19,831 nt of DNA, from positions 1-19,831 of the forward strand of contig PVWD01000095.1 of NCBI GenBank assembly GCA_003003615.1, read 5' to 3'. Of the stretch, positions 1,482 through 12,169 are shown piece by piece. The DNA comes from a filamentous cyanobacterium CCP2 (GTDB lineage Bacteria > Cyanobacteriota > Cyanobacteriia > Elainellales > Elainellaceae). How positions within the stretch are numbered: position 1 is the first letter of the stretch; the number at the start of each line of letters is the position of its first letter. The translations under genes were made by a program, and so were the position numbers. The notes beneath the pieces were generated by a model. That model was not told the DNA's origin, made no database searches, and saw only the letters and a list, made by a program, of their open reading frames with translations.

Positions 1482-1661
1482 GCTCAGGCAGGGGAAGGAT
1501 GGAAATTCAATCAACAAGCTGGGTGAAACTTTGAAATCGTTGCTAAAGCGCGATCGTATTCTTCTTCGGTTTCAATCACTTTTGGTGTTGTTTCTGTTAG
1601 TAAATTGCGGTAGGCGATCGGGTTAAAAGTAAGGGTCATTTCTTCAAAATTGGCGCATAGT

Positions 1662-2985: not shown

Positions 2986-3069
2986 ATTAGTCTATCCTCT
3001 TTTCCACGAAACTAGTTTTAACCAGAGGGCAGCAGTCCCCAACCGCGTCCTTACTACGATTGCTCATAC

Positions 3070-3140
3070 TCACCCTTAATCTGCTCCAGGTTATGCCGAT
3101 CGATCAGTTCCCGAATTCGATCGGTTTGCAAGCACTCTTC
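3070..3140. repeat. Copy 1 of a 71-bp direct repeat (67/71 identical to 4991..5061). It is the displaced 3' fragment of an RHH-like gene and contains an internal palindrome CCGATCGA-N13-TCGATCGG.
   Basis: Direct comparison of the two copies. On the minus strand this copy reads ...PEECLQTDRIRELIDRHNLEQIKGEYEQS*, against ...EEYLQTDRIRELIDRHNLDQIKGDDEAE* for the intact gene at 4975..5181. Confidence 0.8.
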
Positions 3141-3187
3141 TGGTTTACGTAGTAGAGCACAATGCTCGAAAAGCCCCACATGAAGTC

Positions 3188-3229
3188 GATCAGTTTAAAT
3201 GTTACTGATCTTAAATGTTACTGATCAGT
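3188..3229. repeat. Composite palindrome with a tandem 16-bp duplication (TTAAATGTTACTGATC x2), bounded by GATCAGT/ACTGATC arms
   Basis: GATCAGT-TTAAATGTT-ACTGATC-TTAAATGTT-ACTGATCAGT. The tandem units are 3195-3210 and 3211-3226. Sits downstream of the high-GC gene and inside the repeat-bracketed segment. Confidence 0.6.
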
Positions 3230-3369
3230 GCGTAGTCGTCTAAACGAAGCCGACGCGTGCCGATCGCGGTGCAAGGTGGGCTTTGGTCCACTCAGCACCA
3301 CTTTGAAGAGAAGCACTTCTACAGAGGTACGGCACCAGCGGAAGGGAACTTCGAACTCGGCTTGCGTCA

Positions 3370-4158
3370 TCATCGTGCTCTTCTCGGTCTCTTTGAAGCC
3401 GCGTTCATTCGTTCTATTTGCGTCTGCTGTTCGTCGAGATTGCGCTCGTGTTCGGCCTTTGCTTCGTGATGGGCGAACTGATCGCCCGATGCTCGGTCTG
3501 AGAGTTCGTGCAGACGGTGCTTGCGGCCATAGAGGACGAGCAGATCCCTAGGACGAAGCTGTAGATCCGCTGGAGGAGTCCCGATGTAATCTTCACGTGA
3601 TCGCTTGACCCCAAGTACGAGGACACCCTCGGCTGCAAGGTTGAGCTCACCAATCGCGTGATTCGCCAACCAGGTACCGTCTTCGACTTCAACCTCAACG
3701 ATCCGGTAATCCTCGCGAAGATGCAGCAGGTCGGCGTAATCTCTCAGATCGAGCGTGGTGTAGCGGGCCAGTGAACGCTCGATCAGGGGCGTGAGCACTC
3801 GGTTGAAGGCCCGGCTTCGAGCCAGTCCGATGAGCACGCAGACGCCCAGCAGCAGCACCAACAAACGCTCCGGTGCCGTCTGCCCAGATCCGACGAAGGA
3901 GAGCAGCAGCGTCGATATCGCCGACACGACTCCGATGGAGCCAAGTCGAATGAGTTGGGTGGCAATCCGCCGCCGCGCTGGGTTCTTCACAATGGACTCT
4001 GCTTCGTCAGTCGTGAATCCGGTGCCTGAGAAGGCCGAGAGTGCTTGGAAACGCGCCACCTCCTCCGATAAACCCGTCATCAAGAAAGCAACGGAGCCTA
4101 CCCGAATCACCAACATTGAAAGGGCCAGAACGAGCAGAAGGGAGACGACAGAAACCAT
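3370..4158 (-). CDS. Membrane protein with a C-terminal TrkA-C/RCK_C regulatory domain (transporter- or channel-associated), foreign high-GC origin
   Basis: 262 aa. N-terminal hydrophobic helices (VVSLLLVLALSMLVIRVGSVAFLM, LGSIGVVSAISTLLLSFVG, LLVLLLGVCVLIGLA) and a TrkA-C-like fold (DYRIVEVEVEDGTWLANHAIGELNLAAEGVLVLGVKRSREDYIGTPPADLQLRPRDLLVLYG). About 60% GC. A strong SD, GAGGAAGGAG, sits 6 nt upstream of the ATG, which is atypical for cyanobacteria. Very few HIP1 sites. Confidence 0.75.
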   Translation of the reverse strand: MVSVVSLLLVLALSMLVIRVGSVAFLMTGLSEEVARFQALSAFSGTGFTTDEAESIVKNPARRRIATQLIRLGSIGVVSAISTLLLSFVGSGQTAPERLLVLLLGVCVLIGLARSRAFNRVLTPLIERSLARYTTLDLRDYADLLHLREDYRIVEVEVEDGTWLANHAIGELNLAAEGVLVLGVKRSREDYIGTPPADLQLRPRDLLVLYGRKHRLHELSDRASGDQFAHHEAKAEHERNLDEQQTQIERMNAASKRPRRAR

Positions 4159-4201
4159 AGCTACTCCTTCCTCAGGGAACAGGGTGAGAACCTGGTTTAA
4201 T

Positions 4202-4456
4202 TCAGAATGCTCCGATCAGTAGCTCGGAGTAGGATTCAAGTCCTCGTGTGAAGTACGCGCGCAGCACCTCCCTACCCACTACCTTTCCTGACGGATTATC
4301 AAGCAGTTTCGCTGCGACGGGCGATACCAGGATCACATCCGCTGCGTAATGGGACAAGCTGGTATCGAGGTCATGTGAGTTCCATGCCTGTACCCAATGA
4401 TGGGCGAAATCGTGCAGTTCTATCTCGGTGAGCATGGCAGTCTCCGCAAGAGGCAT
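4202..4456 (-). pseudogene. SnoaL-like/NTF2-like small protein, probably C-terminally truncated. Alternative starts: GTG at 4492, ATG at 4435.
   Basis: MLTEIELHDFAHHWVQAWNSHDLDTSLSHYAADVILVSP... matches the NTF2-like/SnoaL polyketide-cyclase-like N-terminal half. The ORF ends after about 85-96 aa, right at the junction with the high-GC segment, whereas the family is usually 120-140 aa. Confidence 0.5.
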
Positions 4457-4479
4457 AACTATATATTCACCGTCAAAAG

Positions 4480-4689
4480 TGCGGGATAACACCCCTATGT
4501 TCCACGATTGTCCATCAGATCTGCGGGATAAAACCAGACTTTCAGGATTTAAACAGAAAAATTGATAGTTAAGTCTGGGGATTTGGGGTGTTATCCGTCA
4601 CATTTGATAGTTAAGTATGGAGATTCGGGTGCCTATCTGTCACTTTTGCTGGATAACATCCTTGATAACGGTATTATCCAGCATCTATC
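4480..4689. promoter_or_regulatory. Cluster of GGATAAC/GTTATCC motifs (repeat-rich att-like or operator-like region). It includes a 42-bp tandem imperfect repeat (4563..4604 and 4605..4646, about 36/42 identical) and a perfect palindrome GCTGGATAA-N17-TTATCCAGC (4648..4682). It lies immediately upstream of the recombinase remnant.
   Basis: Motifs read directly: GCGGGATAACACCCC (4481), GCGGGATAAAACC (4522), GGGGTGTTATCCGTCAC (4585, inverted relative to 4481), GCCTATCTGTCAC, CTGGATAACATCC, TTGATAACGG, GTATTATCCAGC. Each tandem unit carries GTTAAGT. Confidence 0.55.
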
Positions 4690-4830
4690 ATGTCGCAACC
4701 TCAACCGCCACGCCTGCTTGATCAAGTCCGGCGATCGATCCCTCTCAAGCACTTCAGCCTCAAAACTGAGAAATCTTGCGTTCACTACATTCGCGATTTC
4801 ATTCGCGGTAAATGTCATTCAAAGACATAG
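4690..4830 (+). pseudogene. N-terminal remnant (46 codons) of an IntI/XerD-like tyrosine recombinase (Phage_integr_N / PF13495-type SAM-like domain)
   Basis: MSQPQPPRLLDQVRRSIPLKHFSLKTEKSCVHYIRDFIRGKCHSKT* parallels the IntI1 N-terminus ...[33 protein letters not shown]. It ends at a stop after 46 codons. No downstream frame continues a recombinase catalytic domain. Confidence 0.6.
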
Positions 4831-4974
4831 GAGTAATCGTGTAAGAACTACTGAAGTGCAAAATCTAAGCAACGTCGTGCCTTGGCTACGTTTTTTCTTA
4901 ACCTGCAAACCATCGCCTATCTTTTCTGCGATCGCCTCAATCTGATCCACATCAGCTATGCCTGCCAAAAATTC

Positions 4975-5181
4975 TTACTCCGCCTCATCGTCACCCTTAA
5001 TCTGATCCAGGTTATGCCGATCGATCAATTCCCGAATTCGATCGGTTTGCAAGTATTCTTCCAACGCCTCATTGAAGAACTCAGATACAGAGACATTCAT
5101 CAAAGCTGCTAAGGCTTTGACCAGTACGCTTGTTTCAGGATCTAGATAGACTCTAACCTCTGGGTTACGTTTAGCGTTCAC
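4975..5181 (-). CDS. Small RHH (ribbon-helix-helix, CopG/ParD-like) putative DNA-binding or antitoxin protein. Orphan, with no adjacent toxin ORF.
   Basis: 68 aa. RVYLDPETSVLVKALAALMNVSVSEFFNEALEEYL fits the beta-strand plus two-helix RHH pattern. Its 3' 71 bp is duplicated at 3070..3140. Confidence 0.55.
   Translation of the reverse strand: MNAKRNPEVRVYLDPETSVLVKALAALMNVSVSEFFNEALEEYLQTDRIRELIDRHNLDQIKGDDEAE
4991..5061. repeat. Copy 2 of the 71-bp direct repeat, forming the 3' end of the RHH-like CDS
   Basis: 67/71 identity to 3070..3140. Same internal palindrome CCGATCGA-N13-TCGATCGG. Confidence 0.8.
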
Positions 5182-5276
5182 GCGATCGGGTTTGTAGATT
5201 TTTTTCCATACCCTATTGTCTGATATCGAGGTAGTGAGCTATCGTAGTATCGTACTGCCGTAATGACGTAAAACCT

Positions 5277-5408
5277 ATGCCGACCCTCTCCGATGATGAG
5301 TTCAACCTGATCCGCAAACTCCTCATGGACTTACGCTCCATCAAAACCTCCGATCTCGACAAAGCCCTTGCTATCCTGCATAAACGCAACAAACCCATTG
5401 ACCCCTAA
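5277..5408 (+). CDS. Small ORF A1 (43 aa) of a duplicated module. Paralogous to a 27-codon ORF at 8296..8379.
   Basis: MPTLSDDEFNLIRKLLMDLRSIKTSDLDKALAILHKRNKPIDP, against copy B MDLRSIKTSDLDKALAIMSKRTKTNDR. The coding status is uncertain and it could be a non-coding repeated element. Confidence 0.3.
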   Translation: MPTLSDDEFNLIRKLLMDLRSIKTSDLDKALAILHKRNKPIDP

Positions 5409-5600
5409 CCCATCAACCCCTGTACGGGCAAAGCATTGGCAGTGAGATGTATGAATCAAAATCAAAAGTTTCTATGCAAATGCTTCGCCCCTACCCGCGC
5501 AACCCCACAACCGATCGTCCTAAACCCGATCGCCCCTTTCATATGGAGAATTCACCATGCTGATTTTGAATGATGCTCAAGCGTTGATTGTGGAATCATT
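5323..5600. repeat. Copy A of a diverged ~250-bp direct repeat module. Copy B is 8294..8505. The two copies flank the NTPase and pentapeptide gene pair.
   Basis: A near-identical 45-bp core (GGACTTACGCTCCATCAAAACCTCCGATCTCGACAAAGCCCTTGC) occurs at 5328-5372 and 8299-8343. A second conserved block lies around the ATGCTGATTTTGAA start. Confidence 0.75.
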
Positions 5601-5748
5601 GCTGACCAAAATGTTGATTAACGATGCCTATTCGGTTGCCCAATTGGAAGAAGCGATCGGTTGGTTTCAGCAAAAACAAACTGTATCTTGCCCCTTTGAG
5701 CAAACCTGGAGTAGAAATCTGGCTGATGATAAAGATGAGCTGACATGA
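5557..5748 (+). CDS. Small ORF A2 (63 aa) of the duplicated module. Its first ~5 codons (MLILND) are paralogous to a 21-codon ORF at 8465..8530; the two diverge after that.
   Basis: MLILNDAQALIVESLL..., against copy B MLILNDVQALDEIVERLRKVC*. The leaders are conserved: CCCCTTTCATATGGAGAATTCACCATGCTGATTTTGAA versus CCCCTTTGATTTGGAGATTGACCATGCTGATTTTGAA. Confidence 0.3.
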   Translation: MLILNDAQALIVESLLTKMLINDAYSVAQLEEAIGWFQQKQTVSCPFEQTWSRNLADDKDELT

Positions 5749-5837: not shown

Positions 5838-7310
5838 ATGCCCCTGGACATTCGCCAACTTAACCTGGGTTCCGATTCAGCCGAGCGCGATATCGCCATT
5901 GGACTATCCGAGTATTTCTATCAGAACTCCACCTATCACAAGTTTTTCGACAGCGGCAAAACCATCCTGGTCGGCAATCGGGGCAGCGGCAAAAGTGCCA
6001 TCTTCAAGTACATGGCAGCAGTGGAAGCCCGTAAAGGCAACCTCATCCTCGAATTGTCACCAGAGGAATACTCCTACGAACTATTATCGGAACATTTACG
6101 CAGTGAGAAGGAAGGCTCTTGGGGCAAGCAAAGCTCATACTCGGTCGCCTGGCAATATCTGCTCTATTGCCTCATTTTCAAGAAGATTGTAGAGGAAAAG
6201 CGGGGCTTATTACTGGGGAGTCAAAAGGATATTTTTACCTACGTCCAAAGCCATCTACAGAACCAAAATCTCCATTCCATCAGCATTCTTTTCAACTACT
6301 TGAAGCGGCTAGAGGAAATTAAGCTGGGTAGCCATCAAAGCTTACAGCGATCGCGCGAGCTTCAGAGTCTCTATAGTTTAGAAGAAATCAAGCAACTGCT
6401 GCCGAGCCTCAAAAAAGTATTGGGAAAGCTCAGAGTCAAAGTTTTTATTGATGAACTGGACAAAGGGTGGGATAACTCAGAAGATGCCAAATATTTTCTA
6501 GCTGGACTGTTTCAAGCTGCCCAAAAGCTCAATTTGATCAGCTCTAACTTAAAAATCTATATCTCGATTCGCCAGGAGCTATTTGATAACATTCCTCAAA
6601 TCTACGAAGATGCTCAGAAAATTCGTGAAGACGTAGAGGTGATTCGCTGGGGCAAAGCTGAACTCCTGGAGCTAATTGGACTACGGATTGCCCACTGCTT
6701 CCCGGAACTGCAACAGTCTAATGGTCTGCGCTGCTGGAATTCCATCTTTGTCTCCCAACTGCCCCTCCGCAGCGAAGAATCGATCGGCTCTACATCAGCA
6801 GATTACATCATCGATCGCACCCAACTTCGTCCCCGTGAACTCCTACAGTTTTGCAAACTCTGCATCGAGTACTATAACGGTGGCAAGCGGATTGAGGAAA
6901 ATACTATCTATGCGGCTGAAGAAGTTTATTCAGAACAAAAAATTAAAGATTTAGCCTCAGAATATCGCTTCAAATACCCTCATTTATTAGATCTATTTGA
7001 GGTGTTTCGGGGACATAAAAGCCACTACGAAAAAAATGATCTGGAGTATCTGCTACTGTCTATTGTTTGCGGTGAAGTTGATGTGGATCAGGCAGCATCC
7101 TGGGTGCAGGAACTCGACTACCTGGAACTAAAAAAACTGCTCTGGAATATCGGCTTTCTTAAAGCAAAGGTGCCTCGGCAAATGGGTCAAAACATTGGAG
7201 GCAAAGGTACTTTCTTTGGACACTATGAATTGCCAAGTATCAACCTGGAAAACGTTGAACACTTTTGCATCCACCCCGCTTTCTGCTACTTCCTGAGCCT
7301 CAAATCTTAG
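5838..7310 (+). CDS. P-loop NTPase, NACHT/STAND-like (or other AAA+-like), with a ~200-aa C-terminal helical domain and no fused repeat array
   Basis: 490 aa. Walker A KTILVGNRGSGKSAIFKYM, Walker B RVKVFIDELDKGWD (hhhhDE...D), a TSR-like sensor-1 KIYISIRQE, and a sensor-2-like RPRELLQF. Family assignment is from motifs only. The stop TAG directly abuts the downstream ORF. Confidence 0.8.
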   Translation: MPLDIRQLNLGSDSAERDIAIGLSEYFYQNSTYHKFFDSGKTILVGNRGSGKSAIFKYMAAVEARKGNLILELSPEEYSYELLSEHLRSEKEGSWGKQSSYSVAWQYLLYCLIFKKIVEEKRGLLLGSQKDIFTYVQSHLQNQNLHSISILFNYLKRLEEIKLGSHQSLQRSRELQSLYSLEEIKQLLPSLKKVLGKLRVKVFIDELDKGWDNSEDAKYFLAGLFQAAQKLNLISSNLKIYISIRQELFDNIPQIYEDAQKIREDVEVIRWGKAELLELIGLRIAHCFPELQQSNGLRCWNSIFVSQLPLRSEESIGSTSADYIIDRTQLRPRELLQFCKLCIEYYNGGKRIEENTIYAAEEVYSEQKIKDLASEYRFKYPHLLDLFEVFRGHKSHYEKNDLEYLLLSIVCGEVDVDQAASWVQELDYLELKKLLWNIGFLKAKVPRQMGQNIGGKGTFFGHYELPSINLENVEHFCIHPAFCYFLSLKS

Positions 7311-7376
7311 GTGCTGTTATGCGACAATTTGGTCATACTTTTAAGATTCCATCTAATCGCTATAGAGAGAACCAAT

Positions 7377-8189
7377 ATGCCATGGAACCCGCGAAAATTA
7401 ACGTGTACGCTAGAGTTAGTGGCCCAAAAGATCCCCACTTGGGTCGCCGTGTTGATATCAGTGGTGGGCCTTGCAACGATCGCCCTCTGGGTTCAGGAAG
7501 ATATCGTCATCCGTTCACCGCTTGATCTATTCCAACGCGATACCCTTAAAATTTTCTTTGAGAATGCTGAGTCGTTTGCGATCGTGGCAGCGGTGATTCT
7601 CTACTTCAAAGACGCACCCGATCGCAAAGCCAAGAAACACTACGAAGCGTGGAGTATTATTGACAATGCGGCTGCCGCCAAAGTTGCTACCAGTTACGCG
7701 CGCTTTCAGGCCCTTCAAGACCTCCATAAAGATGGGGTTGCACTTTGTGCTCTGGATGCTCCCCGCGCTAACCTGGCAAAAATTCAGCTCTCCGGTGCCC
7801 ACCTCAATGAGGCGAATTTGCCGGGGGCTGACCTGCGAGAAGCCTATCTGCACCGCTGCGACCTGTCCCAGGCGAATCTACAGGGAGCGAATCTGCAAAA
7901 GGCCAACCTCAAAGGGGCGAACCTGCGTGGAGCGAATCTGCAAGAAGCCAATTTGCGTGATGCCAATCTAAGTGGGGCTGATCTGCGGGAAGCGAATTTA
8001 CGGGGAGCCAACTTACGCAATGCGGAACTCTGGAAATCCCAGTTTTTGGGTGCTGATTTGGAGGATGCAGAACTGAAGTGGGCCGAGCTTCAGGGTGCTG
8101 AACTATACGGGGCAAGGCTGCACCGCACAGTGATGCCCGATGGTAGTTTAGAACAGCAGGAAATTGAGCTTTGGAGCCACTTCCTGTAG
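7377..8189 (+). CDS. Membrane-anchored pentapeptide-repeat protein. Alternative GTG start at 7311 directly abuts the NTPase stop.
   Basis: Two hydrophobic helices (IPTWVAVLISVVGLATIALWV; SFAIVAAVILYF) followed by about 25 A(D/N)LxG-type pentapeptide repeats (ANLQGANLQKANLKGANLRGANLQEANLRDANLSGADLREANLRGANL...). Confidence 0.85.
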   Translation: MPWNPRKLTCTLELVAQKIPTWVAVLISVVGLATIALWVQEDIVIRSPLDLFQRDTLKIFFENAESFAIVAAVILYFKDAPDRKAKKHYEAWSIIDNAAAAKVATSYARFQALQDLHKDGVALCALDAPRANLAKIQLSGAHLNEANLPGADLREAYLHRCDLSQANLQGANLQKANLKGANLRGANLQEANLRDANLSGADLREANLRGANLRNAELWKSQFLGADLEDAELKWAELQGAELYGARLHRTVMPDGSLEQQEIELWSHFL

Positions 8190-8293: not shown

Positions 8294-8505
8294 ATATGGA
8301 CTTACGCTCCATCAAAACCTCCGATCTCGACAAAGCCCTTGCCATCATGAGCAAACGGACTAAAACAAACGATCGCTGACTGGGCGGGCAAGATGCCCAC
8401 CCCACAAGAAGTTAGGCAGACAAGATGTTAATACAAGCCCACCCCTTTGATTTGGAGATTGACCATGCTGATTTTGAACGATGTCCAAGCATTGGATGAA
8501 ATTGT
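8294..8505. repeat. Copy B of the diverged direct repeat module. It carries the short ORFs 8296..8379 and 8465..8530.
   Basis: See copy A. Its central part is shortened and diverged. Confidence 0.75.
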
Positions 8506-8665: not shown

Positions 8666-9847
8666 CTAAAGGTTGCGAATGGCTTCAATGATTTGAACAT
8701 TTGCTTTAGGGAATGGGTATTGATCTAACTCATCCACCGTCACCCACTTCACCTCATCACATTCGATCGCCTGTGGTTCTCCATGAACATGACGGCAGTG
8801 ATGAACGTTTAGCGTCACACGAAAATGAGTGTAGGTATGATCGATTGTGATCAGCCGATCGCCCACTTCAATGTCTATGCCAATTTCCTCCTGAATCTCT
8901 CGTCGGATGCAGGCTTCAACTGTTTCATTTGGCTCAATTTTTCCTCCTGGAAATTCCCAGAGTCCTCCCAGCAAACCATCTTGAGGGCGACGATCGATTA
9001 AAATTTGGTTCTGGTCATTCCAAATCACAGCCACTCCAATTTGTTTATGAGGGATGGGGCTGCGGCTTTCAGAAACAGGAAGTTCGCTTTGCATATTCAA
9101 CCGATGAGCACAACAGTAGGGTTGCCAGGGACAGAGTAAGCAGGCTGGGTTCTTGGGGGTGCAGATTGTCGCTCCCAGATCCATCAATGCCTGGTTAAAA
9201 TCGCGGGAGTAAACCGGATCAACCAATGCAGTAGACACCTGCCAAAGCAAGTTTATCGCCTGCTTGGGGGAAACGGTCAACGCGATCAGCCGTGCCAACA
9301 CCCGCTTTACATTACCATCTAAAATGGGCACAGGTTGGCTATAGGCCGCACTTAAAATGCCGCCTGCTGTGGTTCGCCCAATGCCGGGTAACTTCACAAC
9401 CGCCTCAAACTCAACGGGAAACTTTCCTTCATCAGATTGGACGATCGCCTGGGCCGCCCGATGTAAATTCCGGGCACGGGCATAATACCCTAACCCCTGC
9501 CATGCCTTCAAGACGTGCTGTTGGTCTGCGGCGGCGAGGGCGGCGATCGTGGGAAACTGCATCATCCAGCGTTCATAGTATGGAATGACTGTCTTCACCT
9601 GGGTTTGTTGCAGCATAATTTCTGACACCCAGATGGCATAAGGATCTTGGGTTTTGCGCCAGGGTAGATCTCGCCCCGATTCTGCATACCAATCCAAGAG
9701 CGATCGTCGCAGTTCCTCAATGTTTGAGATATCAAAATCCTCCCACTGTCCCAAAGCAGGACTTGTAGGAGGAGCATCAAGATTGGGTTGATTCAAATCA
9801 GCAGTAAACGGGGTAAAACCGTCAGAATTGGGGCGATCGGACTTCAT
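8666..9847 (-). CDS. mutY: A/G-specific adenine DNA glycosylase MutY with a C-terminal NUDIX/MutT-like domain
   Basis: HhH-GPD core (LPGIGRTTAGGILSAAYSQPVPILDGNVKRVLAR), a [4Fe-4S] cysteine cluster (CTPKNPACLLCPWQPYCCA) and a NUDIX-like C-terminus (GLWEFPGGKIEPNETVEACIRREIQEEIGI). Confidence 0.93.
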   Translation of the reverse strand: MKSDRPNSDGFTPFTADLNQPNLDAPPTSPALGQWEDFDISNIEELRRSLLDWYAESGRDLPWRKTQDPYAIWVSEIMLQQTQVKTVIPYYERWMMQFPTIAALAAADQQHVLKAWQGLGYYARARNLHRAAQAIVQSDEGKFPVEFEAVVKLPGIGRTTAGGILSAAYSQPVPILDGNVKRVLARLIALTVSPKQAINLLWQVSTALVDPVYSRDFNQALMDLGATICTPKNPACLLCPWQPYCCAHRLNMQSELPVSESRSPIPHKQIGVAVIWNDQNQILIDRRPQDGLLGGLWEFPGGKIEPNETVEACIRREIQEEIGIDIEVGDRLITIDHTYTHFRVTLNVHHCRHVHGEPQAIECDEVKWVTVDELDQYPFPKANVQIIEAIRNL

Positions 9848-10179
9848 TACTCATTCTCTACATCTGCTGCCTGTAAAGAGCGTTCAAAGGTGAGCCGTTG
9901 TTCAGCATTCCGCAAGAAGTAGCCGCTCATCATGGCTGAAGCCAGTAACCGACCCAAATGCTCTCGGCTCGTCGTCACTGTAATATCAAATTGCTCAGAA
10001 GGCAAGCCACCCAAAAGCCCAATAATATTCCGCTCCATCACTTGTAGCACTTCCCCTGAGTCAGGCTTGGAAAGTTGGGAAACGGTTTCTGGACTCATGG
10101 ACTGAACATACTGCCAAAGATGATTGCCAGAGTGACCACCCTCAAAGTATTCTGCGATGCGATTTGGTGTGTCGTTCAT
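9847..10179 (-). CDS. DUF760-family conserved cyanobacterial/plastid-lineage protein
   Basis: 110 aa. LWQYVQSMSPETVSQLSKPDSGEVLQVMERNIIGLLGGLP...MMSGYFLRNAEQRL matches the DUF760 signature. Its stop overlaps the mutY start (ATGA). Confidence 0.8.
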   Translation of the reverse strand: MNDTPNRIAEYFEGGHSGNHLWQYVQSMSPETVSQLSKPDSGEVLQVMERNIIGLLGGLPSEQFDITVTTSREHLGRLLASAMMSGYFLRNAEQRLTFERSLQAADVENE

Positions 10180-11184: not shown

Positions 11185-12169
11185 CTTCTGATAGGGGCCT
11201 GCCTGTTCCCCCTCGCCTCACCATGATTAGCTCAGCCCCAATGCTGATGGCAATTTCTTCCGGCGTTAAAGCCCCAATATCTAGCCCAATGGGAGCATAA
11301 ACCGATCGCAGTGCTTCTACGGGAATGCCTGCTGCTTCGATCGCCTGAAACACTTGCTTTACTCGCCGTTCGCTGCCAATCATGCCAATATACCGGCAGG
11401 GTGGATCGCGCTGGAGGAGGGCAGTGAGGGCAGCCAAATCATGCTGATAGCCTCGCGTGACAAGGGCGGCATACAGTTGAGTTTGTTGAACAAGCTGGGT
11501 AACGGTTGCAGCAATGGGTTCAGTAAAAATCTGGCTGGCTTGAGGATAGCGTTGGGAATTGGCCCATTCCGGGCGATCGTCTTGGACAGCAACCTGAAAC
11601 CCAATCTGAGCCGCAACTGCCGCAAGCTGAATGCCCACATGCCCTGCACCAACAATGAGCAGCATCGGAGGAGGATACAGCGTTTCAATGAAGGCGTGGG
11701 TGGAATGGGGAACGGGAGCATCGGCAATGTAAGGAGGGTTGGCATCGAAGGGTGTCACCAGGGTAACGGGCTGCCCTGACTCAAGCTGTTGAAGGATTCG
11801 CTGAATCAAGCCGATCGCCCCTTTGCTCGCTCCATTCTCATCCGTCCAGCGTTCCAGCCAAACCTGCATCGTACCACCGCAAATCCCTTCTGTGGGGAAG
11901 CTTGTAGAGCGATCGGCTCTGGTTGTTCCAGTGAGGTTAATTTCGACAAACTGTTTTTGTCCCGTTTCCAACACCGCCCTTGCCTGACGAATTACTTTTG
12001 CTTCTCCTGCCCCACCCCCAATGGTGTTGAACGTTTGCCCATCCCCACAAATCACCATTTTTGCCCCCACTTCTCTGGGCACAGAACCCCGAACTGCCGT
12101 CACCGTCGCCAGAACGGCCATACCATGATGCAACACGTCAGCCAGATAGCGATAGCAGTCAAGGGACAT
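11111..12169 (-). CDS. XdhC/CoxI family protein (xanthine dehydrogenase accessory / Mo-cofactor insertion-like)
   Basis: N-terminal XdhC_CoxI-like region (AVLATVTAVRGSVPREVGAKMVI) and a Rossmann XdhC_C region (LLIVGAGHVGIQLAAVAAQIGFQVAVQDDRPE). The 3' end overlaps the convergent SDR gene by about 74 bp, so the C-terminal low-complexity tail may be over-called. Confidence 0.85.
   Translation of the reverse strand: MSLDCYRYLADVLHHGMAVLATVTAVRGSVPREVGAKMVICGDGQTFNTIGGGAGEAKVIRQARAVLETGQKQFVEINLTGTTRADRSTSFPTEGICGGTMQVWLERWTDENGASKGAIGLIQRILQQLESGQPVTLVTPFDANPPYIADAPVPHSTHAFIETLYPPPMLLIVGAGHVGIQLAAVAAQIGFQVAVQDDRPEWANSQRYPQASQIFTEPIAATVTQLVQQTQLYAALVTRGYQHDLAALTALLQRDPPCRYIGMIGSERRVKQVFQAIEAAGIPVEALRSVYAPIGLDIGALTPEEIAISIGAELIMVRRGGTGRPLSEATHCHKPEPQPPADPLLPQKPESK

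Follow-up and report, generated by a model that had tools for sequence, protein, structure and literature searches.

The stretch of DNA analysed here, from a filamentous cyanobacterium (19.8 kb, referred to throughout as the window), very probably carries a fossil chromosomal integron that comprises the 5′ end of an integrase gene (delta-intI), a complete attI site and one composite gene cassette devoid of attC. Because both an attC site and a remnant of the catalytic domain are absent from the window, its status as an integron rests on comparison with other loci. The remainder of the window is chromosome, with genes for MutY, DUF760, SDR, XdhC, Tex, DJ-1 and a GAF histidine kinase; it contains eight copies of HIP1 (GCGATCGC), compared to 0.3 expected, and both Rfam and tRNA scans of it were empty.

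The integrase remnant and its intact relatives

The open reading frame at 4690–4830 on the plus strand encodes the 46-residue peptide MSQPQPPRLLDQVRRSIPLKHFSLKTEKSCVHYIRDFIRGKCHSKT, which the earlier note on this DNA had described as the N-terminal 46 codons of an IntI/XerD-like recombinase. The remnant is real (tblastn E value 2.8e-14) but its homology spans 38 codons only, corresponding to delta-intI at 4690–4803; the last eight codons, RGKCHSKT, are unrelated DNA leading to the stop codon at 4828–4830. When full-length cyanobacterial IntI proteins were compared with the window by tblastn, the sole match was to 4690–4803, which covers amino acids 1–38. The IntI of locus L008 is 79% identical to the stub over 38 residues (E 2.8e-14) and that of L013 is 88% identical over 33 residues; the E values for L008, L017 and L013 range from 1e-13 to 3e-14, and the nearest full-length relatives, those in L008, L013, L017 and L027, are 59–88% identical to the stub. 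This match is far above chance, even when a scan of 19.8 kb in six frames is taken into account.

Profile searches assign the stub to the same family. Its top NCBIfam matches are two integron-integrase models, NF011946 (E 9.3e-6, residues 8–40 aligned to model positions 15–47) and TIGR02249 (E 7e-4, residues 9–41 aligned to positions 1–33), with scores of 19–25 bits that fall short of the curated whole-protein cut-offs (265 for TIGR02249 and 435 for NF011946). Judged by these similarities, the stub is a remnant of an integron integrase and not itself a member of the family. The Pfam search with PF13495, which the earlier note had proposed as a check, did give a match to residues 9–39 (E 0.006), but at 17.4 bits it stays under the 27-bit cut-off.

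The rest of the gene is missing. The earlier note had suggested looking for remnants of the catalytic (RHRY) domain. When six full-length IntI proteins were run against the whole window by tblastn (word size 2, E values up to 10), no such remnant appeared in any frame, and nothing with E < 0.1 lay outside 4690–4803; the additional domain of IntI (ALER motif near patch III) is likewise absent from the window. Since the tblastn match is confined to 4690–4803, the remnant is real. It derives from IntI and not XerD, and the remainder is absent as opposed to frameshifted. The stub corresponds to 38 codons, or 12%, of the 321-residue IntI, and the other 283 residues are without counterpart in the window, close to the deletion of some 90% that had been proposed (about 88% is missing). 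At the DNA level, the blastn homology of the window to at least 25 loci stops at 4800–4804.

Within the stub, the substitutions R18P and Y30C, the latter inside the TEKSY motif, fall at residues conserved in intact relatives. In sequence terms they are consistent with relaxed constraint, and the stub is presumably non-functional. Its three nearest database proteins (77–84% identity) are all fragments, of 46–81 residues, in three different contexts.

To place the stub among its relatives we draw on a survey that took one genome for each species and used N-terminal peptide patterns as seeds; it yielded 32 loci (L004–L035), nearly all from filamentous or colonial cyanobacteria. An intact intI, encoding 317–350 residues, is present in five of the 32 (L008, L013, L017, L024 and L027); the others either retain an N-terminal stub or have lost internal sequence between two preserved ends (L007, L012, L022 and L025). 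As the survey was seeded by N-terminal peptides, the retention of the N-terminus reflects ascertainment bias and is not readable as selection. On TIGR02249, whose cut-off is 265, the proteins of L008 and L017 reach 480 bits, and the signature motif of the additional domain of IntI (ALERKYP) is found as LPYALERKYP in L008, L017 and L027 and as LPYALDRKYP in L013. The intact layout, seen in L008, L013 and L017, consists of a 321-residue IntI, an attI of about 237 bp upstream and divergent cassettes with 87-nt attC sites. Several genomes have more than one locus, namely Nodosilinea P-1105 (the intact L013 and the degraded L022), Lyngbya confervoides (L024 and L026) and JTS-RE22 (three loci). The degraded L022 retains three attC sites.

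The attI site and the cassette beside it

The 237 bp directly upstream of the intI start codon (4453–4689, minus strand) form an attI site. At least 17 cyanobacterial loci align over it (blastn E 1e-33 to 3e-80), and when the window was compared with all fetched loci by blastn, homology was restricted to 4447–4804. Conservation begins abruptly at AACTAT (4456–4461); past the GTT core the sequence differs locus by locus (GTTAGGC, GTTAGAC, GTTATGC and others), with YTAAC-like bases at the edge. The earlier note had placed attI upstream of intI, and this block, aligned across 17 loci with its onset at the GTT core, bears that out. The simple site (4453–4469, minus strand) consists of an L box, TGAATAT (4469 to 4463), a spacer, ATA, and an R box, GTTATGC (4459 to 4453), whose core is of the GTTRRRY type. 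The crossover lies between G4459 and T4458 of the minus strand, so that the junction of attI and cassette reads ...TGAATAT-ATA-G/TTATGCC, the slash marking the crossover. The features of an integron-platform attI are all present: a position upstream of intI, conservation within the class, a simple site and a G/TT crossover. The site is near the family consensus and essentially complete, and it has the simple site in common with the intact integron of L008.

In the 227 bp that lead to the start codon (4463–4689), repeat families and a register table define five full 42-nt units and a sixth half unit, which start at 4463, 4505, 4547, 4589, 4631 and 4673 in strict 42-nt register. Each is a palindrome, TTATCC-NNCA-N4-TGNN-GGATAA, in the window as well as in the 17-locus consensus, and the attI of L014 (9765–9970) likewise has units spaced by 84, 84 and 42 nt. 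The units are probably accessory boxes for IntI binding.

For attC sites we used two covariance models, R1, which derives from 5 sites, and R2, which derives from 26. Five attC sites of L014 (Nodosilinea), 766–1728 nt apart, make up the seed alignment and fold as expected; they are about 87 nt long, with the pattern GCCTAAC...CACCGGA...TCCGGTG...GTTAGGC, and the covariance model found a sixth at 8975–9059. R1 and R2 together revealed attC sites in 13 loci, in one orientation and on the cassette side of intI except in L001. In the window the two models, run with filters off, found zero attC sites in 19.8 kb; the best E values, 0.1 and 0.69, belong to the attI palindromes.

The DNA adjoining attI is that of a gene cassette (3134–4458, minus strand) whose 3′ end is missing, as homology to three metagenome contigs (L036, L037 and L038) indicates. 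L036 and L037 were found via two database proteins with the same 77-residue SnoaL truncation, and L038 via a third protein. The window at 3134–4460 aligns with L037 over 1327 nt at 93.9% identity and with L036 and L038 at about 94%; in each of the three the homology stops at 4458–4460, the crossover base of attI. The cassette thus begins, as a cassette should, at the TT of the preceding site's GTT. In L038 a strong attC site (74 bits, E 2e-18) has the identical start, G/TTATGCCTCTTGCGGAGACTGCCATG, as its R′ end, and a second attC (81 bits) lies further upstream. That one cassette occurs at an attC junction in L038 and at attI here is what integration catalysed by IntI through attI x attC recombination would be expected to give. 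In L037 the cassette closes with its own attC at 11368–11450 (28 bits, E 9e-6), whose R′′ box, GCATAAC, complements the cassette start TTATGC. That attC lies 82 nt beyond the cut point of the window copy, which has lost about 164 nt of its 3′ end, own attC included.

The earlier note had pointed to the divergent geometry of intI and cassettes, which stands, given the attI site and a cassette bounded by attC elsewhere (L038, L037). The cassette array it had suggested is not present: the covariance models found no attC in the window, and the DNA at attI is one composite cassette whose attC is lost. The composite structure is as follows. The N-terminal part of a SnoaL-like gene (codons 1–73; 4217–4435, minus strand) matches only positions 2–51 of the 102 in Pfam SnoaL_2. 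Its reading frame starts at the ATG at 4435 and encodes 77 residues, with a stop at 4202 inside an insert, compared with 119 residues in full-length homologues. The insert, about 1 kb long (3200–4216, GC 0.56–0.62), splits the SnoaL gene near codon 73 and contains a 51-codon ORF and the gene for a membrane protein of 262 residues with a TrkA-C domain (3370–4158, minus strand; Pfam TrkA_C, E 6e-13). The SnoaL frame resumes at 3199, and this C-terminal part, FKLIDFMWGFSSIVLYYVNQKS (3199 to 3134, minus strand), was recognised by comparison with the homologues P0007 and P0009 (...KFELIDVMWGLSSVVLYYVNQ...) and with the continuation in L037, ...TKTGEFMEFDFDGKVIRVVANYSG*; it is cut at 3134. The same 262-residue gene follows the truncated SnoaL gene in L037, and since the split structure is common to L036, L037 and L038, it predates arrival at this attI. 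On the strength of these comparisons, the truncated SnoaL and TrkA-C genes are to be read as one composite cassette, not two. The difference in GC content that had been noticed at the two genes was confirmed, with 0.52 for SnoaL and up to 0.62 for TrkA-C against about 0.44–0.46 in the flanks.

Some further observations concern the insert and the cassette homologues. The sequence ACTGATCG stands on either side of the TrkA-C insert (3200–4216), a 13-nt inverted repeat is present (4209–4221 and 3219–3231), and the insert is without a transposase. At 3195–3226 the window has a perfect 16-nt tandem duplication of TTAAATGTTACTGATC, which is single copy in L037. In L036 and L037 the cassette starts, at position 9976 of each, at G/TT (T/TT in L036) and has upstream of it no recognisable attI or attC, which means that it can occupy non-canonical sites. 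There it adjoins a stress-gene island (DnaK, two YfdX, DnaJ, MerR, ClpB and DUF308), with short direct repeats and a TTATGC...GCATAA palindrome just upstream. This position could be a secondary-site insertion or an attI of an unrecognised type. Separately, 33 nt of the window (8377–8409) are 100% identical to L037 15714–15746, at the contig end and outside the shared genes; this stretch is probably a short dispersed repeat.

The broken ends and how the locus may have decayed

After codon 38 the intI homology gives way to a 97-nt spacer (4804–4900), which is followed by a complete RHH module (4901–5406). The spacer holds no attC and matches no fetched locus by blastn, and a 20-mer taken from it had no exact match in the metagenome collection. 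The module carries an intact RHH (CopG-like) gene (4975–5181, minus strand; Pfam RHH_1, E 1.4e-4) and, as in L039–L042, a divergent 43-codon ORF. RHH relatives with 96–97% amino acid identity occur in four unrelated contexts, so that the module is a multi-copy element and not an orthologous flank; the covariance-model search found no attC near the RHH modules of L039–L042. A second copy survives as a 3′ remnant, the last 27 or so codons (3054–3141, minus strand), fused to the truncated cassette. It has 78 nt at 92% identity to 4984–5061 and is 95% identical to the RHH genes of L041 and L042. At the joint, where the homology to L037 stops at 3134, both partners carry the 9-nt sequence GAAGA(G/A)T(A/G)C, suggesting a deletion or fusion mediated by microhomology. 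The integron relic lies between the complete copy and the remnant, which are in direct orientation to each other, an arrangement that would fit a Campbell-type integration via RHH homology, going by the sequence.

Repeated small modules also occur elsewhere in the window. The contig of L042, which carries an RHH module, was considered as an empty site and rejected, because its match to window 1544–1598 is to another small repeated antitoxin-like module. A 42-codon ORF at 1511–1639 (minus strand), MTLTFNPIAYRNLLTETTPKVIETEEEYDRAL..., shares 55 nt at 98% identity with L042 1042–1096 and resembles what is left of the N-terminal part of an antitoxin-like gene within that module. Further along, a small ORF pair (of 43 and 63 codons) has partial repeats at 5274–5671 and 8296–8490 that are 83–88% identical. 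The repeats flank a gene for a 490-residue P-loop ATPase-like protein (5838–7310), which has a weak PADLOC match to PDC-M28C (E 1e-6), and a pentapeptide-repeat gene (7311–8189); the region may be a small inserted island.

We searched for an orthologous locus in a sister strain by exact MutY look-up, by a scan of metagenome contigs for the RHH protein and with the spacer 20-mer, and found none, so that the comparison with an equivalent locus proposed earlier yielded full-length homologues at other loci but not the orthologous one. For this reason we infer the ancestral state, the order of events and the partner in the intI deletion. In the history we favour, attI x attC recombination by IntI would first have brought a circular cassette into attI, leaving ...ATATAG/TTATGCC. 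A later deletion or rearrangement would have taken away intI from codon 39 on, and a second, microhomology-mediated event would have removed the last 164 nt or so of the cassette, with its attC and anything beyond, joining the truncated cassette to the RHH gene remnant. What remains is delta-intI with its 38 codons, the complete attI and one immobilised cassette with the truncated SnoaL and TrkA-C genes. A single cassette without attC cannot be excised. Its genes would now be fixed and, if expressed, would presumably depend on a promoter within the attI/stub region; attI itself should be usable only with another IntI supplied in trans.

The intI break does not mark a recombination hot spot, for instance a secondary GTT site, a possibility we considered and rejected: the breakpoints of relatives scatter between codons 27 and 85 and a common junction sequence is absent. 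Three of them (the window, L001 and L018) fall at codons 37–41. In L001, a metagenome contig (2865–2965), the intI stub ends at codon 40; about 15 nt further on an attC (53 bits) begins in array orientation, which suggests that a cassette-array rearrangement destroyed the intI of that locus.

A different view of the same remains is that attI is not dead, either because an intact IntI elsewhere recombines it in trans or because attI and the 5′ stub are kept for expression or regulation of the first cassette. The near-consensus attI would agree with this, as would the several related genomes that hold more than one integron locus and the many loci that keep attI and only the first 27–56 codons. 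In class 1 integrons, moreover, the promoter Pc lies at IntI1 codons 31–39 (PMC2791841), which by the profile-alignment offset are codons 24–32 of the window, within the stub. We nevertheless consider it unlikely. A promoter at the Pc position gained no support from a consensus scan of 4150–5250, which stayed at the shuffled level (3 sites, the shuffles giving 1.9 +/- 1.2); the minus strand has a single site, 4643 to 4614, which is weak with 9 of 12 matches, and the cassette strand inside the stub is without a site. Retention of N-terminal stubs is accounted for by the ascertainment bias of the survey seeds, and the scattered breakpoints, codon 27 to codon 85, likewise speak against it. The stub carries R18P and Y30C, the sole cassette has no attC, and a second intI is absent from the 19.8-kb window, the part of the genome examined.

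A more far-reaching idea, which we hold to be decidedly improbable, is that the large attI acts as a nucleoprotein scaffold beyond recombination and, with the first 30–50 or so codons of intI, is kept as a promoter/operator or as a landing pad for IntI acting in trans. The five-and-a-half palindromes of attI are phased every four helical turns and reach the intI start codon. Were this true, the attI-plus-stub relics of cyanobacteria would be a maintained class of functional elements and not debris.

That the attI and stub block is a discrete MITE-like mobile or repeated element, spreading by itself, comes to mind because the same block of about 350 bp is found in many unrelated contexts, sometimes two or three times per genome. 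This reading is largely refuted, and we give it very little credence: the right end varies in nearly all loci (codons 27–85), often running into more of intI or an internally deleted intI, the left end is a cassette junction, followed by attC arrays in 12 loci, terminal inverted repeats or target duplications delimiting the block are absent, and the intact versions are ordinary integrons. Finally, a chance match or a remnant of another tyrosine recombinase (XerC/XerD or phage integrase) that shares the SAM-like N-terminal domain, for which one could cite the PF13495 score below threshold and the occurrence of that domain in many recombinases, is hardly tenable and is refuted by the integron-integrase models at the head of the NCBIfam matches, by the 79–88% identity to IntI proteins whose scores are 480 bits on TIGR02249 but only 136–153 bits on XerC/XerD models, which upholds the IntI side of the earlier assignment, and by the co-linear, family-specific attI. 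We therefore retain the reading as a fossil integron.

Comparison with known integrons

The relic accounts for the presence at this place of a high-GC TrkA-C gene and half a SnoaL gene. It is also a clean case of past IntI activity, in which two genomes carry the same cassette at different junctions, attC in one case and attI in the other, and its by-products are a usable attI definition and an attC covariance model for this clade of cyanobacterial integrons. Both intI pseudogenes and cyanobacterial integrons are already known, and the locus is an ordinary, well-documented case of decay that leaves knowledge of how integrons work or decay unchanged. Its only mildly new detail is the 42-bp phased attI architecture, and this attI of the clade may be the only feature worth follow-up.

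The simple site of attI1 reads CTAAAAC-AAA-GTTAGGC, and that of the window resembles it in having an inverse core, a 3-nt spacer, a GTTRRRY core and a G/TT crossover. As defined in PMC3146285, a simple site is accompanied in attI1 by the direct repeats DR1 (GTTACGC) and DR2 (GTTATGG), and the window attI too has extra core-like boxes, its half-site GTTATCC resembling these IntI-binding boxes of attI1. In contrast to attI1, which is 65 bp long with two direct repeats, the window attI is about 237 bp with five-and-a-half palindromes at 42 bp, and so both much longer and more regular. For most integrons attI is unknown (Cury 2016, PMC4889954). Like the class 1 platform, the locus has intI and cassette in divergent orientation and attI directly upstream of the start codon; unlike it, it has neither an integrase nor an identified promoter.

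Pseudogenes make up from one third to 46% of intI genes (PMC2426708, PMC3108266), and integrons have been recorded in Cyanobacteria (PMC2426708, PMC3108266, PMC4889954). The locus resembles the pseudo-integrons described by Nemergut 2008 (PMC2426708) and Cambray 2011 (PMC3108266) in being chromosomal, in the loss of intI by a large deletion and in the canonical divergent arrangement of attI and cassette. It has decayed further than the usual intI pseudogenes, which carry frameshifts or stop codons: just 12% of intI is left, and the attC of the cassette is lost too. IntegronFinder requires the IntI C-terminal domain or attC sites (PMC4889954), and as both are absent here, standard integron finders would miss the locus. 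Of the recognised classes of incomplete integron, In0 is defined by a recognisable intI, CALIN by two or more attC sites (PMC4889954). With zero attC in 19.8 kb and no recognisable intI, the window falls into neither, and its attI, stub and attC-less cassette represent a third kind.
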